DNA of 7,884 nt from a virus. Lineage: Duplodnaviria > Heunggongvirae > Uroviricota > Caudoviricetes. A program made the translations under genes and the position numbers. Below are positions 2,516 through 7,884 of this stretch, piece after piece (position 1 is the stretch's first letter; the number at the start of each line of letters is the position of its first letter). The notes below the pieces were generated by a model. That model had not been told where the DNA came from. It searched no databases and worked only from the letters and a program-made list of their open reading frames with translations. The stretch lies in the IMG/VR virus record IMGVR_UViG_2734482594_000006; one strand, written 5' to 3'.

Positions 2516-2797
2516 GTGAAAAAAAATCTCATTGCATGGGCGTGGTCGAGTGGTCTTATTGAGTTTGGTTACGTCCTGCCGGAAGGTGCATTGCCGATAG
2601 TTGCCGGAAAGCCTGCCACGGTACGGCATGTGATTGAGGTTATGGCGCGTCATGGACGTGATGAACAGGAGCAGTTACTGGTTCCGGGGATACCGGAAGC
2701 GGTGACGGAGGAAGAAGCCTTTAATGCCATGATTCGGTTCTGCCGTGAGGTTAGACGCCGGGTCAGTTATCCAAACAGAACGAGGACCAGAGGATGA
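2516..2797 (+). CDS. Hypothetical small early protein (93 aa), GTG start
   Basis: GTG at 2516 is the first start codon after the in-frame stop at 2468-2470, with GGGAGGTG immediately upstream. It starts 1 nt after the previous stop, and its TGA (2795-2797) overlaps the next ATG (2794-2796). Confidence 0.55.
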   Translation: MKKNLIAWAWSSGLIEFGYVLPEGALPIVAGKPATVRHVIEVMARHGRDEQEQLLVPGIPEAVTEEEAFNAMIRFCREVRRRVSYPNRTRTRG

Positions 2798-3066
2798 GTA
2801 AAGTCGTACGCATTATTTTCGAATACAAGGAAGATGTTATCTGCAAAAACTCTGATGGCAGCACGCACAGAGGGGTAAGTCTGGATATACGTTCAACCGG
2901 AATAAAGAAGAAAGATAATGGACCCGCCATGATTTTTGGGGTGGTTATGCTGGCAGAAAGCAGAAACTTCGCAGAGTTTGTGGCAATGAAAGCCAGTGCA
3001 TTCATGAAAGACAGAGGCATGGCTTCCGGGGTTATTAACGGTAATGAATTTAATCAACAGGGGTAA
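2794..3066 (+). CDS. Hypothetical small protein (90 aa), first of a tandem divergent paralog pair
   Basis: ATG 2794 in an ATGA stop/start overlap, GAGGA 7 nt upstream. N-terminus MSKVVRIIFEYKED resembles that of the next ORF. A sampled 60-nt stretch is about 33% G+C. Confidence 0.6.
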   Translation: MSKVVRIIFEYKEDVICKNSDGSTHRGVSLDIRSTGIKKKDNGPAMIFGVVMLAESRNFAEFVAMKASAFMKDRGMASGVINGNEFNQQG

Positions 3067-3070
3067 TTCC

Positions 3071-3364
3071 ATGAGCAAAGTACGCGTTATTTTTGAATTT
3101 AATCATGTTTCGCATGACGAAAAGTTGGCAGGCAATGACTGTGTTGAAGTGCATGAAAAGATTGGAGTGGATGTGAAAACAGAACGTGATACGGATAACA
3201 GGCCGACGTCACTCTGTGACGTTTATGCAAGTATTCTCCAGTATCACAGTCCTGCAATTATTCAGTTTCTCTCAGCGGAATTTCAGGCATCTGCACAGTC
3301 TTTTGGAGCGGATGCCATCATTAAACGCCACCGCGTGCATAAAGCATCAGGCACACTGCAATAA
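3071..3364 (+). CDS. Hypothetical small protein (97 aa), second of the tandem paralog pair
   Basis: ATG at 3071 with AGGGG 8 nt upstream; the ORF-track start at 3044 is probably too early. N-terminus MSKVRVIFEFNHV. Stop TAA at 3362-3364. Confidence 0.6.
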   Translation: MSKVRVIFEFNHVSHDEKLAGNDCVEVHEKIGVDVKTERDTDNRPTSLCDVYASILQYHSPAIIQFLSAEFQASAQSFGADAIIKRHRVHKASGTLQ

Positions 3365-3375
3365 GGAAAAACAAA

Positions 3376-3980
3376 ATGGCTAAACGCGTTACAAAATTAA
3401 AGGCCGCAGCCGAGGCGGCACCGCAGACCCGGGAAGAAGTCAGCCGTGATATCCGCACCCTGGGAGATATTCAGCGAGAGGCGCTGCGCCTGGAAACGGC
3501 GATGAATGACGAAGTGGCAGAAATCACCGCCCGTTATACGCCGCAGATTGAAAATCTTAAAAAGCAAATCAAAGTGCTTTTTAAAGGGATTCAGGNNNNN
3601 NNNNNNNNNNNNNNNNNNNNNNNNNNNNNNNNNNNNNNNNNNNNNNNNNNNNNNNNNNNNNNNNNNNNNNNNNNNNNNNNNNNNNNNNNNNNNNNNNNNN
3701 NNNNNNNNNNNNNNNNNNNNNNNNNNNNNNNNNNNNNNNNNNNNNNNNNNNNNNNNNNNNNNNNNNNNNNNNNNNNNNNNNNNNNNNNNNNNNNNNNNNN
3801 NNNNNNNNNNNNNNNNNNNNNNNNNNNNNNNNNNNNNNNNNNNNNNNNNNNNNNNNNNNNNNNNNNNNNNNNNNNNNNNNNNNNNNNNNNNNNNNNNNNN
3901 NNNNNNNNNNNAAGGTGAATAAAGGCGCTGAAAGTTTTTATGTCGAGCCTTTTGAACAGGACGCCGGACTGAATAAATAA
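3376..3980 (+). CDS. gam: Gam-like host-nuclease inhibitor (Ku-like DNA-end-binding protein); 5' part is secure, 3' boundary uncertain because of mask 3596-3911 and a frame change across it
   Basis: N-terminus MAKRVTKLKAAAEAAPQTREEVSRDIRTLGDIQREALRLETAMNDEVAEITARY matches my recollection of Mu Gam; AAGGA 8 nt upstream of ATG 3376. After the mask, a different frame reads KVNKGAESFYVEPFEQDAGLNK then TAA at 3978-3980, which resembles a Gam C-terminus as I remember it. Confidence 0.7.
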
Positions 3981-4125: not shown

Positions 4126-4464
4126 ATGATTGATGCAAAAGTGCTTGAAGGGGTTAAAAACTGGCTGTGTATTTATGGCCGCCTGACCTGCGGTGTACTG
4201 GCTGAAAAAATGAATATGCCGCCATCCTCCATGGTTTATTTTCTGCGTGATGCGGTTGATGCAGGCGTGCTGACGGAATGTAACGGTTTTTATGATATTC
4301 CGCGTCCCCGCCCGGTGCAGCCGGTTCGTCGCAAATGCAGCCAGGAATCTGCGGCTGATGATGTTCAGTGGTGCGGCTTCAGAAAATCCCTGCCATGGAT
4401 TGAGGGGCATGATATTCCGTCGATGGCGTGGGAATTTGCTCAGGGCGTTCTGACCTGTGAAACC
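4126..4464 (+). CDS. Hypothetical protein, N-terminal 113 aa visible, with a winged-helix-like DNA-binding N-terminus; 3' end masked (4465-4760)
   Basis: ATG 4126 with GGTGGGG upstream. Residues VKNWLCIYGRLTCGVLAEKMNMPPSSMVYFLRDAVDAGVLTE have the helix-turn-helix-wing pattern of MarR/IclR-type regulators; this is judged by eye, not by a profile search. Confidence 0.5.
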
Positions 4465-4760
4465 NNNNNNNNNNNNNNNNNNNNNNNNNNNNNNNNNNNN
4501 NNNNNNNNNNNNNNNNNNNNNNNNNNNNNNNNNNNNNNNNNNNNNNNNNNNNNNNNNNNNNNNNNNNNNNNNNNNNNNNNNNNNNNNNNNNNNNNNNNNN
4601 NNNNNNNNNNNNNNNNNNNNNNNNNNNNNNNNNNNNNNNNNNNNNNNNNNNNNNNNNNNNNNNNNNNNNNNNNNNNNNNNNNNNNNNNNNNNNNNNNNNN
4701 NNNNNNNNNNNNNNNNNNNNNNNNNNNNNNNNNNNNNNNNNNNNNNNNNNNNNNNNNNNN

Positions 4761-5225
4761 CAGCAGGACTGCCAGAAAGTTAAGGATGAGGCAAAACGCC
4801 TTGAGGCCGTGCTGAATGTTGCGTGCCGGTCGGTATTTGTATCCGGTATCAGTGGATTTTACTTTAAGGGACTGCGTTTTACGGAGGACAAATATCCTTT
4901 TCATCGCGACTTATGGCGAAAACCGACTGCGTCGAATGGCTGGAGCTGCACACCGCGCACATCACGTATCCCTAAAACCCTGCGTGTTGCCTCTGATGAA
5001 CTGAACAGTCTGTGGCGTGAATATTCGCCCGTCACGTATGCCAGAACCGATGCGCTGTTGTTCTGGTTGGGTATTGATTTCTCGGCAATCCTGTTTGGCC
5101 CTGTGAAGTGGTTCTGCGTTGACGATGTGATTTACCTTCAGTGCGGCGTAAAACCCGCAAAACAGAAAATGACCGAAATACTGTCTGATGAGTTTTATGC
5201 TGCTGAAAAGCGAGTCAGGGGGTGA
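4761..5225 (+). CDS. Hypothetical protein, C-terminal 154 aa visible; 5' end masked; may or may not be the same gene as 4126-4464
   Basis: Frame 0 is open from the mask edge to TGA 5223-5225 (QQDCQKVKDEAKRLEAVLNV...AAEKRVRG). The GTG at 4809 in the ORF track is internal. The frame differs from that of 4126-4464. Confidence 0.5.
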   Translation, partial: QQDCQKVKDEAKRLEAVLNVACRSVFVSGISGFYFKGLRFTEDKYPFHRDLWRKPTASNGWSCTPRTSRIPKTLRVASDELNSLWREYSPVTYARTDALLFWLGIDFSAILFGPVKWFCVDDVIYLQCGVKPAKQKMTEILSDEFYAAEKRVRG

Positions 5226-5228
5226 TGC

Positions 5229-6146
5229 ATGATGAAATTACAACCCATGGGACTAAAAGGTCGCGCCCCCGCTCATGTCCGTCCGTGGACACCTGAAGAA
5301 GATGCGCTGCTGATTGCGCTTTATTCATCCACCCCGGTTAAGGATATTGCTGCCAGAATAAAAAGAACTGTCTGGGCTGTATATAACCGGACTGGTGTAT
5401 TGCGCAGTTCATACCCGGAGTTACTGAAATATAAACACCCAAGATTTACACCTGATGAAGATAAGTTTATTCGAAAAAATGCCAGAACAATGACCTGCCA
5501 GCAAATGGGAGAATATCTCGGACGTAATAAAGATTCTGTCAGATGTCGGGCAGGAATGATTGGTGCTGGATTAACAAAGTGCGGAGAGTTACGCCCCGGC
5601 ACGCGCATATCTGATGATGATGTACGTCTTATACGTGAGCTGCGTGATTCCGATTACCCACGCCGTCTGTCATTCCGGGAAATTGGCGAAAAGTTTGGAA
5701 TATCTGAACATTCTGCTCACGCAGTTTATTACCGTCGCCGGACTGCCGAGGACGCTGTATTACGGGAGTTAACGNNNNNNNNNNNNNNNNNNNNNNNNNN
5801 NNNNNNNNNNNNNNNNNNNNNNNNNNNNNNNNNNNNNNNNNNNNNNNNNNNNNNNNNNNNNNNNNNNNNNNNNNNNNNNNNNNNNNNNNNNNNNNNNNNN
5901 NNNNNNNNNNNNNNNNNNNNNNNNNNNNNNNNNNNNNNNNNNNNNNNNNNNNNNNNNNNNNNNNNNNNNNNNNNNNNNNNNNNNNNNNNNNNNNNNNNNN
6001 NNNNNNNNNNNNNNNNNNNNNNNNNNNNNNNNNNNNNNNNNNNNNNNNNNNNNNNNNNNNNNNNNNNNGAAGATGAGGACGGACAGGTGACGCACTGGTG
6101 CCATCTTTCGGCCTTGCCGGAATTACAGGGGATACATAATGGATGA
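5229..6146 (+). CDS. Putative DNA-binding protein with three tandem SANT/Myb-like helix-turn-helix repeats; the visible 182 aa plus the 25-aa C-terminal piece are in the same frame across mask 5775-6068
   Basis: ATG 5229 with AGGGGGTGA upstream. Repeats: about 5286-5402 (WTPEEDALLIALY...IAARIKRTVWAVYNR), 5445-5564 (FTPDEDKFI...MGEYLGRNKDSVRCR) and 5604-5741 (DDDVRLIREL...SFREIGEKFGISEHSAHAVYYRR), spaced about 53 aa apart. Stop TGA at 6144-6146. Confidence 0.55.
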   Translation: MMKLQPMGLKGRAPAHVRPWTPEEDALLIALYSSTPVKDIAARIKRTVWAVYNRTGVLRSSYPELLKYKHPRFTPDEDKFIRKNARTMTCQQMGEYLGRNKDSVRCRAGMIGAGLTKCGELRPGTRISDDDVRLIRELRDSDYPRRLSFREIGEKFGISEHSAHAVYYRRRTAEDAVLRELTXXXXXXXXXXXXXXXXXXXXXXXXXXXXXXXXXXXXXXXXXXXXXXXXXXXXXXXXXXXXXXXXXXXXXXXXXXXXXXXXXXXXXXXXXXXXXXXXXXEDEDGQVTHWCHLSALPELQGIHNG

Positions 6147-6282
6147 GCAAATTGTTGAATGTCCCACCTGTGGAAATGAGGACCCGGAGTATCTGAAAGA
6201 GTGCCCACATTGTGGTGAGATAAAATGTAACCACTGCGATATGGGCGACGACACTGCATGTATAAATTGTGAGGATGAATAA
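6139..6282 (+). CDS. 47-aa acidic zinc-ribbon protein with four CxxC motifs; absent from the supplied ORF track
   Basis: ATG 6139 is the first start codon after the in-frame stop at 6088-6090, with GGGG 8 nt upstream. Product MDEQIVECPTCGNEDPEYLKECPHCGEIKCNHCDMGDDTACINCEDE. It overlaps the end of the upstream gene by 8 nt (ATGGATGA). Stop TAA at 6280-6282. Confidence 0.5.
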   Translation: MDEQIVECPTCGNEDPEYLKECPHCGEIKCNHCDMGDDTACINCEDE

Positions 6283-6283
6283 T

Positions 6284-6571
6284 ATGGAAAAAGAAATCAA
6301 ATTTGCGCCTAAATCTATCGACGAAGAACTGGCTAAAATCGGCATGCTTGAACGTATGCGGGACATTATCGAATATGCGATAAAAGAAAATCTTGCAGCC
6401 AGAGAAGCCCTTTTGATAATGGAGCGGGAGATTAACCTGATTAAGGATGCTGTATCTCTGGATAATAAAATAGCCCGCGAGGAATACGTTCGCCGTAGGC
6501 TCGGTGTTGATGGTTCAGCAATTCTTACATCTGAACATTATGCAAAAATTTTTAATCTTTTTCAGCGGTAA
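6284..6571 (+). CDS. Hypothetical 95-aa protein in AT-rich DNA
   Basis: ATG 6284 lies 1 nt after the zinc-ribbon stop, with GAGG(A) about 9 nt upstream. Product MEKEIKFAPKSIDEELAKIGMLERMRDIIEYAIKENLAAREALL... has no domain I recognise. A sampled 60-nt stretch is about 38% G+C, against about 63% in a 60-nt sample from B. Confidence 0.5.
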   Translation: MEKEIKFAPKSIDEELAKIGMLERMRDIIEYAIKENLAAREALLIMEREINLIKDAVSLDNKIAREEYVRRRLGVDGSAILTSEHYAKIFNLFQR

Positions 6572-6791
6572 TCCCCATACAGGCCCGGAGATTGTCGAAA
6601 TGCCAGTCGGTATTAATATATGAGCCATCCTGGATATCTTCTGCATTTTCCGGGGTAGAGTTTTTTTGAGCGAGATTGATAATATGTATTGCCTCCTCAC
6701 GGGAAATCAGCCCCTTATCGAACAGGGTTACCATAAGATTTCCAGCCATTGTGAATGCGGCAACATCAAGTGCATTTTTTATATCTGACAT
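6552..6791 (-). CDS. Hypothetical 79-aa protein, the only minus-strand ORF I consider plausible
   Basis: ATG is the complement of 6789-6791, with AAGGA about 8-10 nt upstream on the minus strand. It is the only ORF of 60 aa or more on either strand across 6572-6861 and overlaps the 3' end of 6284-6571 by 20 nt. No recognisable domain. Confidence 0.4.
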   Translation of the reverse strand: MSDIKNALDVAAFTMAGNLMVTLFDKGLISREEAIHIINLAQKNSTPENAEDIQDGSYINTDWHFDNLRACMGITAEKD

Positions 6792-6861: not shown

Positions 6862-7256
6862 ATGAATCGCGCTTCCCTGATTACCTTAATACATGTCGCA
6901 AAACGCGATCTACAGCTTGACCATGATACCTATACATCCGCGCTGCTGNNNNNNNNNNNNNNNNNNNNNNNNNNNNNNNNNNNNNNNNNNNNNNNNNNNN
7001 NNNNNNNNNNNNNNNNNNNNNNNNNNNNNNNNNNNNNNNNNNNNNNNNNNNNNNNNNNNNNNNNNNNNNNNNNNNNNNNNNNNNNNNNNNNNNNNNNNNN
7101 NNNNNNNNNNNNNNNNNNNNNNNNNNNNNNNNNNNNNNNNNNNNNNNNNNNNNNNNNNNNNNNNNNNNNNNNNNNNNNNNNNNNNNNNNNNNNNNNNNCT
7201 AACTGGCAGTGGCTGGAGCAACAACCCGCGCTGGCCTCTGATGTGCTGGAGCGTCT
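6862..7256 (+). CDS. gemA: GemA-like (Mu gp16 family) early regulatory protein; internal mask 6949-7198, 3' end inside the mask that begins at 7257
   Basis: ATG 6862 with GGAG 8 nt upstream. N-terminus MNRASLITLIHVAKRDLQLDHDTYTSALL resembles the conserved N-terminus of GemA/DUF1018 proteins as I remember them. The same frame is open in the visible island 7199-7256 (NWQWLEQQPALASDVLERL). Confidence 0.55.
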
Positions 7257-7884
7257 NNNNNNNNNNNNNNNNNNNNNNNNNNNNNNNNNNNNNNNNNNNN
7301 NNNNNNNNNNNNNNNNNNNNNNNNNNNNNNNNNNNNNNNNNNNNNNNNNNNNNNNNNNNNNNNNNNNNNNNNNNNNNNNNNNNNNNNNNNNNNNNNNNNN
7401 NNNNNNNNNNNNNNNNNNNNNNNNNNNNNNNNNNNNNNNNNNNNNNNNNNNNNNNNNNNNNNNNNNNNNNNNNNNNNNNNNNNNNNNNNNNNNNNNNNNN
7501 NNNNNNNNNNNNNNNNNNNNNNNNNNNNNNNNNNNNNNNNNNNNNNNNNNNNNNNNNNNNNNNNNNNNNNNNNNNNNGNNNNNNNNNNNNNNNNNNNNNN
7601 NNNNNNNNNNNNNNNNNNNNNNNNNNNNNNNNNNNNNNNNNNNNNNNNNNNNNNNNNNNNNNNNNNNNNNNNNNNNNNNNNNNNNNNNNNNNNNNNNNNN
7701 NNNNNNNNNNNNNNNNNNNNNNNNNNNNNNNNNNNNNNNNNNNNNNNNNNNNNNNNNNNNNNNNNNNNNNNNNNNNNNNNNNNNNNNNNNNNNNNNNNNN
7801 NNNNNNNNNNNNNNNNNNNNNNNNNNNNNNNNNNNNNNNNNNNNNNNNNNNNNNNNNNNNNNNNNCGCCACTACCAGATGTCAG

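Follow-up and report, generated by a model that had tools for sequence, protein, structure and literature searches.

Two diverged small genes in the early region of an Escherichia coli Mu-like prophage are probable members of the Gnarl2 family

Introduction

How are two adjacent small genes that begin almost identically and then diverge related to each other, and what might they contribute to the early region of a Mu-like prophage? We addressed this question for ORF1 and ORF2, two open reading frames (ORFs) located at positions 2794–3364 of a 7,884-nucleotide (nt) stretch of phage DNA, IMG/VR virus record IMGVR_UViG_2734482594_000006, hereafter called the window. The window (7.9 kb) comes from an Escherichia coli Mu-like prophage, of which it forms the early region; its segment 2516–3600 shows 100% identity with E. 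coli chromosomes such as NZ_CM128582.1, and the segment with ORF1 and ORF2 is carried by 232 of 5426 complete E. coli genomes, O157:H7 strains among them. The original prediction, made from the DNA letters without database searches, described the two ORFs as products of an old tandem duplication under diversification and ventured that they might be host-interaction or anti-defence factors. We found that the ORFs, of 90 and 97 amino acids (aa) as described there, are intact and co-oriented, and that both very probably encode remote homologues of Gnarl2, the E6/Mup07 protein of phage Mu. The pair is thus a two-copy variant of a recently described family, not new in kind.

ORF1 and ORF2 as distant members of one protein family

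Comparison of the two proteins agreed with the near-identical N-termini and subsequent divergence noted previously. Nine of the 11 N-terminal residues were identical, the whole-protein alignment reached z = 6 with none of 2000 shuffles scoring as high, and BLASTP gave E = 6e-4. Profiles of the ORF1 and ORF2 families were aligned by hhalign at P = 4.8e-6 to 8e-6, through N-terminal columns only. Removal of the first 11–12 residues reduced the similarity to z = 2.2 in local and z = 3.4 in global alignment (5 of 2000 shuffles), the trimmed families compared at P = 0.26–0.28, which is not a significant body-to-body signal, and the hidden Markov model (HMM) of neither family recovered the other at E ≤ 10. 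Pairwise alignment, the check proposed with the original prediction, was clear for the whole proteins. For the trimmed ones, considered in isolation, it approached the outcome named there as refuting, a similarity limited to the first dozen residues, but this changed with the addition of relatives.

The relatives were not evident from simple searches. Word-based protein searches with ORF1 or ORF2 returned E. coli proteins only, tblastn with either protein against 50,697 phage records matched only two Shiga toxin (Stx)-phage records with an inserted Mu-like element and did not match Mu, and PHROGs splits ORF1 and ORF2 into different families, 4107 and 2230. Phage Mu protein Mu_7 (the old "E6", 87 aa) has the N-terminus MAKVIIEI... 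and a layout like those of ORF1 and ORF2, and it matched phrog_2230, the ORF2 family, over its full length at E = 0.009. The gam loci fetched from other species yielded a fourth subfamily in Kluyvera and in an unclassified Enterobacteriaceae genome, and a mixed-alignment search added Salmonella members and more Mu-type members. An exhaustive HMMER scan of 1.84 billion representatives returned only 24 proteins at E ≤ 1e-3, including 12 new full-length members (84–100 aa) and one spurious repeat protein. The named members come from Escherichia, Salmonella, Citrobacter, Enterobacter, Kluyvera, Serratia and Edwardsiella, and every one is annotated as hypothetical. In the alignment of the family (A6), the N-terminal motif M-[AS]-K-V-x-[IV]-[IF]-x-[FIY] was the most conserved part of the whole. 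Only chance-level matches were obtained in sequence searches of Pfam with single proteins, of Pfam and NCBIfam with the A6 members, and of the PDB with the A6 profile.

Profile-profile comparison by hhalign, in which all controls with reversed profiles gave P ≥ 0.11, connected these groups. The ORF2 family matched the Kluyvera/Salmonella subfamily (P = 1.6e-6, columns 28–82), the Kluyvera-type subfamily matched the Mu E6 family over the full length (P = 7.5e-5), and the ORF1 family matched a set of Mu E6 and Kluyvera-type proteins, gathered independently of ORF1, over 71 collinear columns (P = 8.6e-5). Against profiles excluding ORF1 and ORF2, the ORF1 family scored 92–95% probability (P = 5.7e-7 to 2.8e-8, 71–72 collinear columns). 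A 16-member core that leaves out the ORF1, ORF2 and Mu E6 families, 12 members of which came from a search with a profile including ORF1 and ORF2 and the other four from separate searches, was matched by the ORF1 family at 92% (P = 5.7e-7), by the ORF2 family at 99.3% (P = 1e-20) and by the Mu E6 family at 97% (P = 7e-11). With the N-terminal strand removed, the values against this core were 87.5% for ORF1 (P = 3.6e-6, 59 columns), 98.7% for ORF2 (P = 2e-16) and 93.7% for Mu E6 (P = 1.9e-7). Because the trimmed bodies still matched the family core, ORF1 and ORF2 appear to be full-length members of one superfamily, and both are very probably Gnarl2-superfamily homologues. Their link to Mu E6 is transitive, because the direct profile comparisons were weak.

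A shared constraint on translation initiation or regulation could also have made the N-termini of two otherwise unrelated proteins alike, and the non-significant comparison of the two trimmed bodies with each other agrees with such an explanation. It was nevertheless largely refuted by the collinear matches of each trimmed body to the rest of the family, far beyond the reversed controls, and by the global alignment of the trimmed proteins, and we regard it as very unlikely. Taken together, the comparisons joined three PHROG families (10252, 2230 and 4107) and further unannotated proteins into one family restricted to Enterobacterales.

Members of this family share a layout in which an N-terminal β-strand begins at Met1 and is followed by a variable hairpin, then by a G-P-x-D-like turn, with helices making up the C-terminal half. 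Low-confidence AlphaFold2 models likewise placed a long β-hairpin ahead of helices, and a Foldseek search of BFVD with these models returned nothing at E ≤ 0.001. Both proteins are predicted to be soluble. A membrane peptide was rejected on the lack of a transmembrane segment (maximal Kyte-Doolittle 19-residue score ≤ 1.17), and an acidic DNA mimic on the isoelectric points of 9.25 (ORF1) and 6.27 (ORF2). A ribbon-helix-helix protein or antitoxin, considered for the N-terminal strand, was rejected since only 1 of 25 members gave a VapB_antitoxin match, below threshold at E = 0.13. Domain searches of ORF1, ORF2 and the family detected no DNA-binding or enzymatic domain.

Copy number and genomic position

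The family HMM, run over all six frames, found exactly one copy in Mu, in two lineages from genome collections, in the loci of eight distant members and in that of the protein P0072. The lineages scanned included Mu, Kluyvera, Salmonella, Serratia, Edwardsiella, Citrobacter-type and other E. coli prophages. Thus, the copy-number survey suggested with the original prediction showed one gene in each of 13 other lineages, and two only in the prophage lineage of the window. The family gene was located between kil and gam, or the DUF3164 gene found in place of gam, in all 12 lineages with enough context. It stood directly upstream of gam or DUF3164 in 10 of 13 lineages, if one disregards a homologue of the 93-aa gene (the gene that precedes ORF1) interposed in four, and homologues of Mu gp8 and gp9 separated it from gam in Mu and at locus L105. 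Of 23 gam-bearing Mu-like loci from other taxa (Gilliamella, Rodentibacter, Pseudomonas and others), 20 lacked the family.

The ORF1–ORF2 pair was present in essentially all of the ~40 IMG/VR contigs of this prophage type, and also at locus L109. Locus L070 carried a single gene, in which the upstream sequence was that of the ORF1 junction and the body was ORF2-type, with the switch falling within the shared first 28 nt. L070 represents either the undivided ancestral arrangement or a pair collapsed by recombination between the 5′ ends.

The nearest relatives of ORF2 outside E. coli were P0104, P0101 and P0110, uncharacterised proteins of the same length encoded by single-copy genes in Salmonella and related Mu-like prophages. 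The ORF2-family HMM scored 42–46 bits against P0101 and P0104, and all three grouped with ORF2 in a neighbour-joining (NJ) tree. The P0101 and P0104 genes lie directly upstream of gam or DUF3164, and the gene at Salmonella locus L099 follows a homologue of the 93-aa gene, which it overlaps by ATGA. In contrast to ORF2, the three proteins are encoded in single copy and end in His.

Origin of the pair

Homology of the two genes, together with the single copy elsewhere, upheld part of the proposed old tandem duplication. The shared N-terminus proved to be family-wide, however, and the two bodies resembled each other no more than they resembled those of other subfamilies, so that the N-terminal identity does not single out the pair. 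Of the two junctions seen in the single-copy arrangement, ORF1 retains the upstream one and ORF2 the downstream one, with gam, as expected from a tandem duplication. Every ORF1-type gene, including an allele of only 56% identity, adjoined an ORF2-type gene, and no lineage with a lone ORF1-type gene was found. This absence and the junction pattern slightly favour duplication.

Recombination between two Mu-like phages could instead have juxtaposed genes of different subfamilies, the common N-terminus then being the motif conserved in all of them. The trees pointed in this direction. In NJ analysis with 200 bootstraps, ORF1 and ORF2 were sisters in 0–2% of replicates, ORF2 grouped with the single-copy 97-aa genes of Salmonella prophages, and, after removal of the N-terminal strand, the ORF1 body grouped weakly (62%) with Mu E6, P0100 and P0107. 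Alleles were frequently exchanged at both genes. Three of seven synonymous positions differed in the shared N-terminal codons, indicating that no recent gene conversion of the 5′ ends had taken place, a possibility that we rejected for this reason. Set against juxtaposition are the junctions and the missing lone ORF1-type gene, and the tree itself was obtained by a distance method from ~90 poorly conserved columns of short, saturated sequences. We consider juxtaposition a possible but doubtful origin. Because the distance tree did not pair ORF1 with ORF2, duplication in situ remains plausible and unproven, and we put its chances at about even.

Selection and allelic diversity

Because synonymous sites were saturated at the ~20% aa identity between the copies, we replaced the between-copy ratio of nonsynonymous to synonymous substitution (dN/dS) proposed with the original prediction by ratios within each family. 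Across unique alleles, dN/dS was 0.33 for ORF1 (18 alleles) and 0.42 for ORF2 (23 alleles), three to four times the value for gam (0.10), with 0.12 for the 93-aa gene. Constraint was weakest in the ORF1 hairpin (0.56) and over the C-terminal quarter of ORF2 (0.72), and no region with meaningful counts exceeded 1. Judging by these substitution patterns, ORF1 and ORF2 are functional genes under purifying but relaxed selection, and neither is a pseudogene. The presumed diversification was not borne out in the form proposed: it amounts to relaxed purifying selection together with allele exchange, and dN/dS did not rise above 1.

The most divergent alleles were 56% identical for ORF1 and 57–60% identical for ORF2, in backgrounds that were otherwise 93–97% identical. 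At L109, ORF1 was 56% identical to that of the window, while ORF2 (93%) and gam (97%) were barely changed. The allele classes of the two genes occurred in every combination, which argues against co-evolution as an obligate heterodimer and in favour of each gene being exchanged independently with a broader pool; the obligate, co-evolving ORF1–ORF2 heterodimer was accordingly rejected. Variable presence among related phages, low G+C content, fast evolution, divergent alleles and a presumed early expression mark both, in an operational sense, as counter-defence or accessory genes.

Decay of one copy into a non-functional duplicate would account for the occasional frameshifted or fused variants (P0039, P0052, P0061 and P0063, the fusion P0030, and loci L041/L042). 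Such variants were rare, and one copy was not a frameshifted pseudogene in most relatives, an outcome that the original prediction had held to be contrary to it: both copies were full length in nearly all loci. The dN/dS values well below 1 and the conserved Shine-Dalgarno motifs and spacing also speak against decay. Part of the defective variants stem from assemblies of low quality that contain several frameshifts, L042 in particular. We find decay very improbable.

Among the variants, P0052, P0061 and P0063 (103 aa) and those at L028, L041 and L042 are forms of ORF1 or ORF2 that switch frame partway. Those of L042, with several frameshifts per gene, look like a problem of sequencing quality and not like decay. 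P0030 from E. coli is a 67-aa protein in which ORF1 residues 1–49 are fused to ORF2 residues 80–97 (window position ~2938 joined to ~3307). It looks like the result of a deletion across a shared TTTTGG, located at non-equivalent positions of the two proteins.

Organization and presumed expression

The coordinates of the pair and its borders are given in Table 1. An alternative ORF2 start at 3044 would yield 106 aa; the start at 3071 is backed by RefSeq and by the family alignment.

Table 1 Coordinates of ORF1, ORF2 and adjoining features in the window
Feature	Position	Strand	Remarks
Upstream 93-aa gene	2516..2797	+	phrog_1518; part of the conserved neighbourhood, not of the pair
ATGA start/stop overlap of 93-aa gene and ORF1	2794..2797	+	Read from the sequence
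ORF1	2794..3066	+	90 aa (MSKVVRIIFEYKED...); upstream copy; phrog_4107, E = 1.7e-54; WP_000049428.1, hypothetical protein
ORF1–ORF2 junction	3059..3070	+	AGGGG 3059–3063 inside the end of ORF1, TAA 3064–3066, 4-nt spacer, ORF2 ATG
ORF2	3071..3364	+	97 aa (MSKVRVIFEFNHV...); downstream copy, directly before gam; phrog_2230, E = 1.8e-38; WP_000049310.1, hypothetical protein
gam (host-nuclease inhibitor Gam)	3376..3918	+	RefSeq annotation; partly N-masked; downstream boundary of the pair

The previously reported ATGA overlap of ORF1 with the upstream ORF was confirmed, and it suggests translational coupling of ORF1 with the 93-aa gene. The same ATGA junction joins the 93-aa-gene homologue and the single family gene at the Salmonella locus L099. 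Shine-Dalgarno-like motifs are located 7 nt before each start (GAGGA at 2782–2786 for ORF1, and the AGGGG of the junction for ORF2). The 4-nt spacer between ORF1 and ORF2 was kept in 57 of 60 IMG/VR locus records with both genes, a count in which many contigs appear as two records. We found neither a promoter nor a terminator on the + strand between 2400 and 3600, which is consistent with co-transcription of ORF1 and ORF2; an internal promoter or terminator was rejected on the same grounds. Both ORFs are intact, lie close together and read in the direction of A, B, kil and gam, and so are presumably made early and from one transcript, an expression time that we infer from operon position alone.

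The G+C content of 2794–3364 was, as predicted, lower than that of A (55%) and B (57%), by ~12 points. Its value is 43.3% and not the ~33% given before; the lowest content, 30%, was confined to a 60-nt stretch (3042–3101) near the ORF1/ORF2 junction.

Relation to Gnarl2 and possible function

The Mu member of the family, E6/Mup07, is orf63 (UDP0063) of Silas et al. and corresponds to NP_050611.1 (NC_000929, 4784..5047; phrog_10252); it was named gnarl2 by these authors (bioRxiv 2023; Nat Commun 2025, PMC12373910). Expression of gnarl2 in wild E. coli shifted O-antigen bands downward in ECOR1 and ECOR22 and raised T5 infection 1e5–1e6-fold in both strains (PMC12373910). The authors proposed a non-enzymatic interference with O-antigen biosynthesis, from which the phage would benefit by superinfection exclusion or by progeny not sticking to debris (PMC12373910). 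Low-level transcription from Pe has been reported in Mu lysogens (PMC3820752), and the literature on the Mu semi-essential region calls its genes "largely uncharacterized". A search of later literature for the mechanism of Gnarl2 added none.

Gnarl2 shares with ORF1 and ORF2 a small size (87 aa versus 90 and 97), solubility and a place between kil and gam in the early operon. Profile-profile comparison puts all three in one superfamily, and they also have in common the M-[AS]-K-V strand, the layout and the lack of a Pfam domain. Gnarl2 differs in being encoded by one copy in Mu, with two more genes before gam, and in having a C-terminal His. The O-antigen downshift and T5 sensitisation were reported for Mup07 alone, whereas ORF1 and ORF2 are known here from their sequences. 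The earlier guess at host-interaction or anti-defence factors fits a family that includes an experimentally identified O-antigen-altering accessory gene, and the core of the original prediction, diverged paralogues that interact with the host, seems largely right.

Phage Mu adsorbs to the lipopolysaccharide (LPS) core, and remodelling of the host surface by an early or lysogenic product would for this reason be biologically sensible. ORF1 and ORF2, in tandem within the early operon, would be made early from Pe, and each protein, like Gnarl2, would bind a host factor of LPS or O-antigen synthesis or assembly without enzymatic activity. Such binding would shorten or alter the O-antigen in the infected or lysogenic cell, which for an LPS-adsorbing phage could result in superinfection exclusion or prevent progeny from re-adsorbing to debris. 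Since the O-antigen machinery is hypervariable among E. coli, the two copies would most likely address different targets, or different variants of a target, in the host. The pair would have arisen through tandem duplication and rapid divergence, or else through a recombination that set two subfamily genes together. We regard this explanation as a whole, a diverged Gnarl2-family pair remodelling the host surface, as the best available, and as about evenly poised between right and wrong. An O-antigen function is attributed to ORF1 and ORF2 because of the remote homology to Gnarl2 and nothing else, and we propose only tentatively, with somewhat less than even confidence, that they may alter O-antigen or LPS.

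Several points weigh against this explanation. ORF1 and ORF2 are only ~15–25% identical to Gnarl2, a distance at which function often changes, and the direct comparisons with the Mu E6 family gave P = 0.011 for the ORF1 family and P = 0.14 for the ORF2 family. The profile that retrieved most of the core contained ORF1 and ORF2, so that the similarity could be slightly inflated. The C-terminal His (often K-H) present in 17 of the 19 other members shown in alignment A6, Mu E6 included, is absent from ORF1 (...NQQG) and ORF2 (...GTLQ). AlphaFold2 models from the shallow family alignments reached predicted local distance difference test (pLDDT) scores of 51 and 57, too poor to judge identity of fold, and the NJ tree, as described above, did not unite the pair. 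Finally, affinity purification–mass spectrometry (AP-MS) revealed no clear target of Gnarl2, and its phenotype was seen in some hosts only and upon induced expression (PMC12373910).

Some of these points would equally suit Gnarl2 homologues with another job, namely binding of a defence system or of a replication or division factor, or an aid to Mu transposition or replication, with the O-antigen effect confined to the Mu E6 subfamily. The very deep divergence, the loss of the conserved terminal His, the neighbours kil and gam with their unrelated host-directed roles, and AP-MS without a clear target even for Gnarl2 are all consistent with this alternative. It is less easily reconciled with the conservation of position, size and layout across the family, with the restriction of the family to O-antigen-bearing Enterobacterales and its absence from Gam-carrying Mu-like prophages of other taxa, or with the lack of any detected DNA-binding or enzymatic domain. 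We therefore treat another job as a serious possibility, if one short of an even chance.

Within surface remodelling by a Gnarl2-family pair, a functional split between the copies is also conceivable, although rather unlikely. ORF1 and ORF2 would then bind different envelope-biosynthesis proteins, or ORF1 would have moved to a new target, for example a defence system, and the independently exchanged panels of alleles (100, 90, 80 and 56% identity for ORF1; 100, 93 and 58% for ORF2) would mirror how O-antigens or targets vary among E. coli hosts. If so, the locus would be a natural specificity series for finding the Gnarl2 target.

The mode of action proposed for ORF1 and ORF2 has parallels, likened here by description only. 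Gnarl1 and Gnarl3 of lytic phages are also small O-antigen-altering proteins, proposed to perturb LPS or O-antigen synthesis non-enzymatically via a host protein, and Gnarl3 binds GalU (PMC12373910); they differ in being treated there as separate genes, with different family labels, and in coming from lytic, not transposable, phages. Iap of Pseudomonas phage D3, an inhibitor of the O-antigen α-polymerase, is likewise a small phage product directed at O-antigen assembly (cited in PMC12373910). ORF1 and ORF2 themselves lack a transmembrane segment, as noted above.

Public resources hold no family model for Gnarl2, and three PHROG families with many "hypothetical proteins" are now linked to an experimentally characterised counter-defence/seroconversion gene, in a family that holds a fixed place in Mu-like early operons. 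In one E. coli prophage lineage, which is widespread, there are two diverged copies, both with a number of highly divergent alleles. Conservation of function would mean that Mu-like prophages commonly remodel the surface of pathogenic E. coli in a seroconversion-like manner, and the natural allele series would offer a direct route to mapping target specificity. Without such conservation, the pair would be an ordinary example of mosaic accessory genes.

Neighbouring genes in the early region

The window is masked in places by stretches of N, which affect the ORFs at 53–1987, 1984–2514, 3376–3918, 4126–4815, 5229–6146 and 6930–7871. They also fuse neighbours into artificial long ORFs, for example joining the C-terminus of A to B and the 73-aa gene to the Kil homologue. 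The true gene set is visible in L001, an unmasked copy, where one strand carries the repressor side, a ner-like gene, A, B, a 73-aa gene and a Kil homologue of 84 aa, followed by the 93-aa gene, ORF1, ORF2, gam, homologues of Mu gp11, gp12, gemA and mor, and lysis genes. The Kil homologue, two genes 5′ of ORF1 (window ~2230–2514, part masked; L001 5745–5999; phrog_2679, E = 6.6e-46), ends in ...RISGCTVYWEV, similar to the ...RLNGCQIIWR of Mu Kil.

The 93-aa gene between the Kil homologue and ORF1 falls in a PHROG family labelled "host nuclease inhibitor" despite having no relation to Gam. Its homologues lie next to the single-copy family gene, before it at some loci and after it at others, at L074 (3741–3980), L099 (3732–4004), L104 (2119–2373), L106 (4268–4522), L107 and L108 (452–706). 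Because they adjoin a single Gnarl2-like gene in many lineages, the 93-aa gene and the Gnarl2-like gene may form a two-gene module. In part of the population, the 93-aa gene was lost by an internal deletion between short repeats (...CGGGTC...), and its remnant is called as a 116-aa, N-terminally extended ORF1 (MKLLHGSALSSGQTP...), as in proteins P0004 and P0023 and at L070 (3796–3894) and L109 (3920–4000).

On the other side of the pair, the gam product of the window is 57% identical to Mu Gam (E = 1e-63). A DUF3164 protein of 205–212 aa replaces Gam at L099 (4303–4941), L102 (4289–4927) and L108 (719–1336); the Gnarl2-like gene still lies directly upstream of the DUF3164 gene there, at L108 together with the 93-aa-gene homologue.

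Further downstream, a lone reverse-strand gene precedes gemA in the otherwise one-directional early region (window 6552–6791, − strand; 79 aa; WP_001280088.1, hypothetical). A reverse-strand gene occupies the same place in related prophages (L001 9875–10114, L097 6801–7211, L102 7317–7559 and L105 7173–7439, all on the − strand). The + strand of the window at 6139–6282 contains a 47-aa Cys-rich ORF (CPTCG...CPHCG...CNHC...CINC), a homologue of Mu gp13 (E14) that probably encodes a zinc-ribbon protein.

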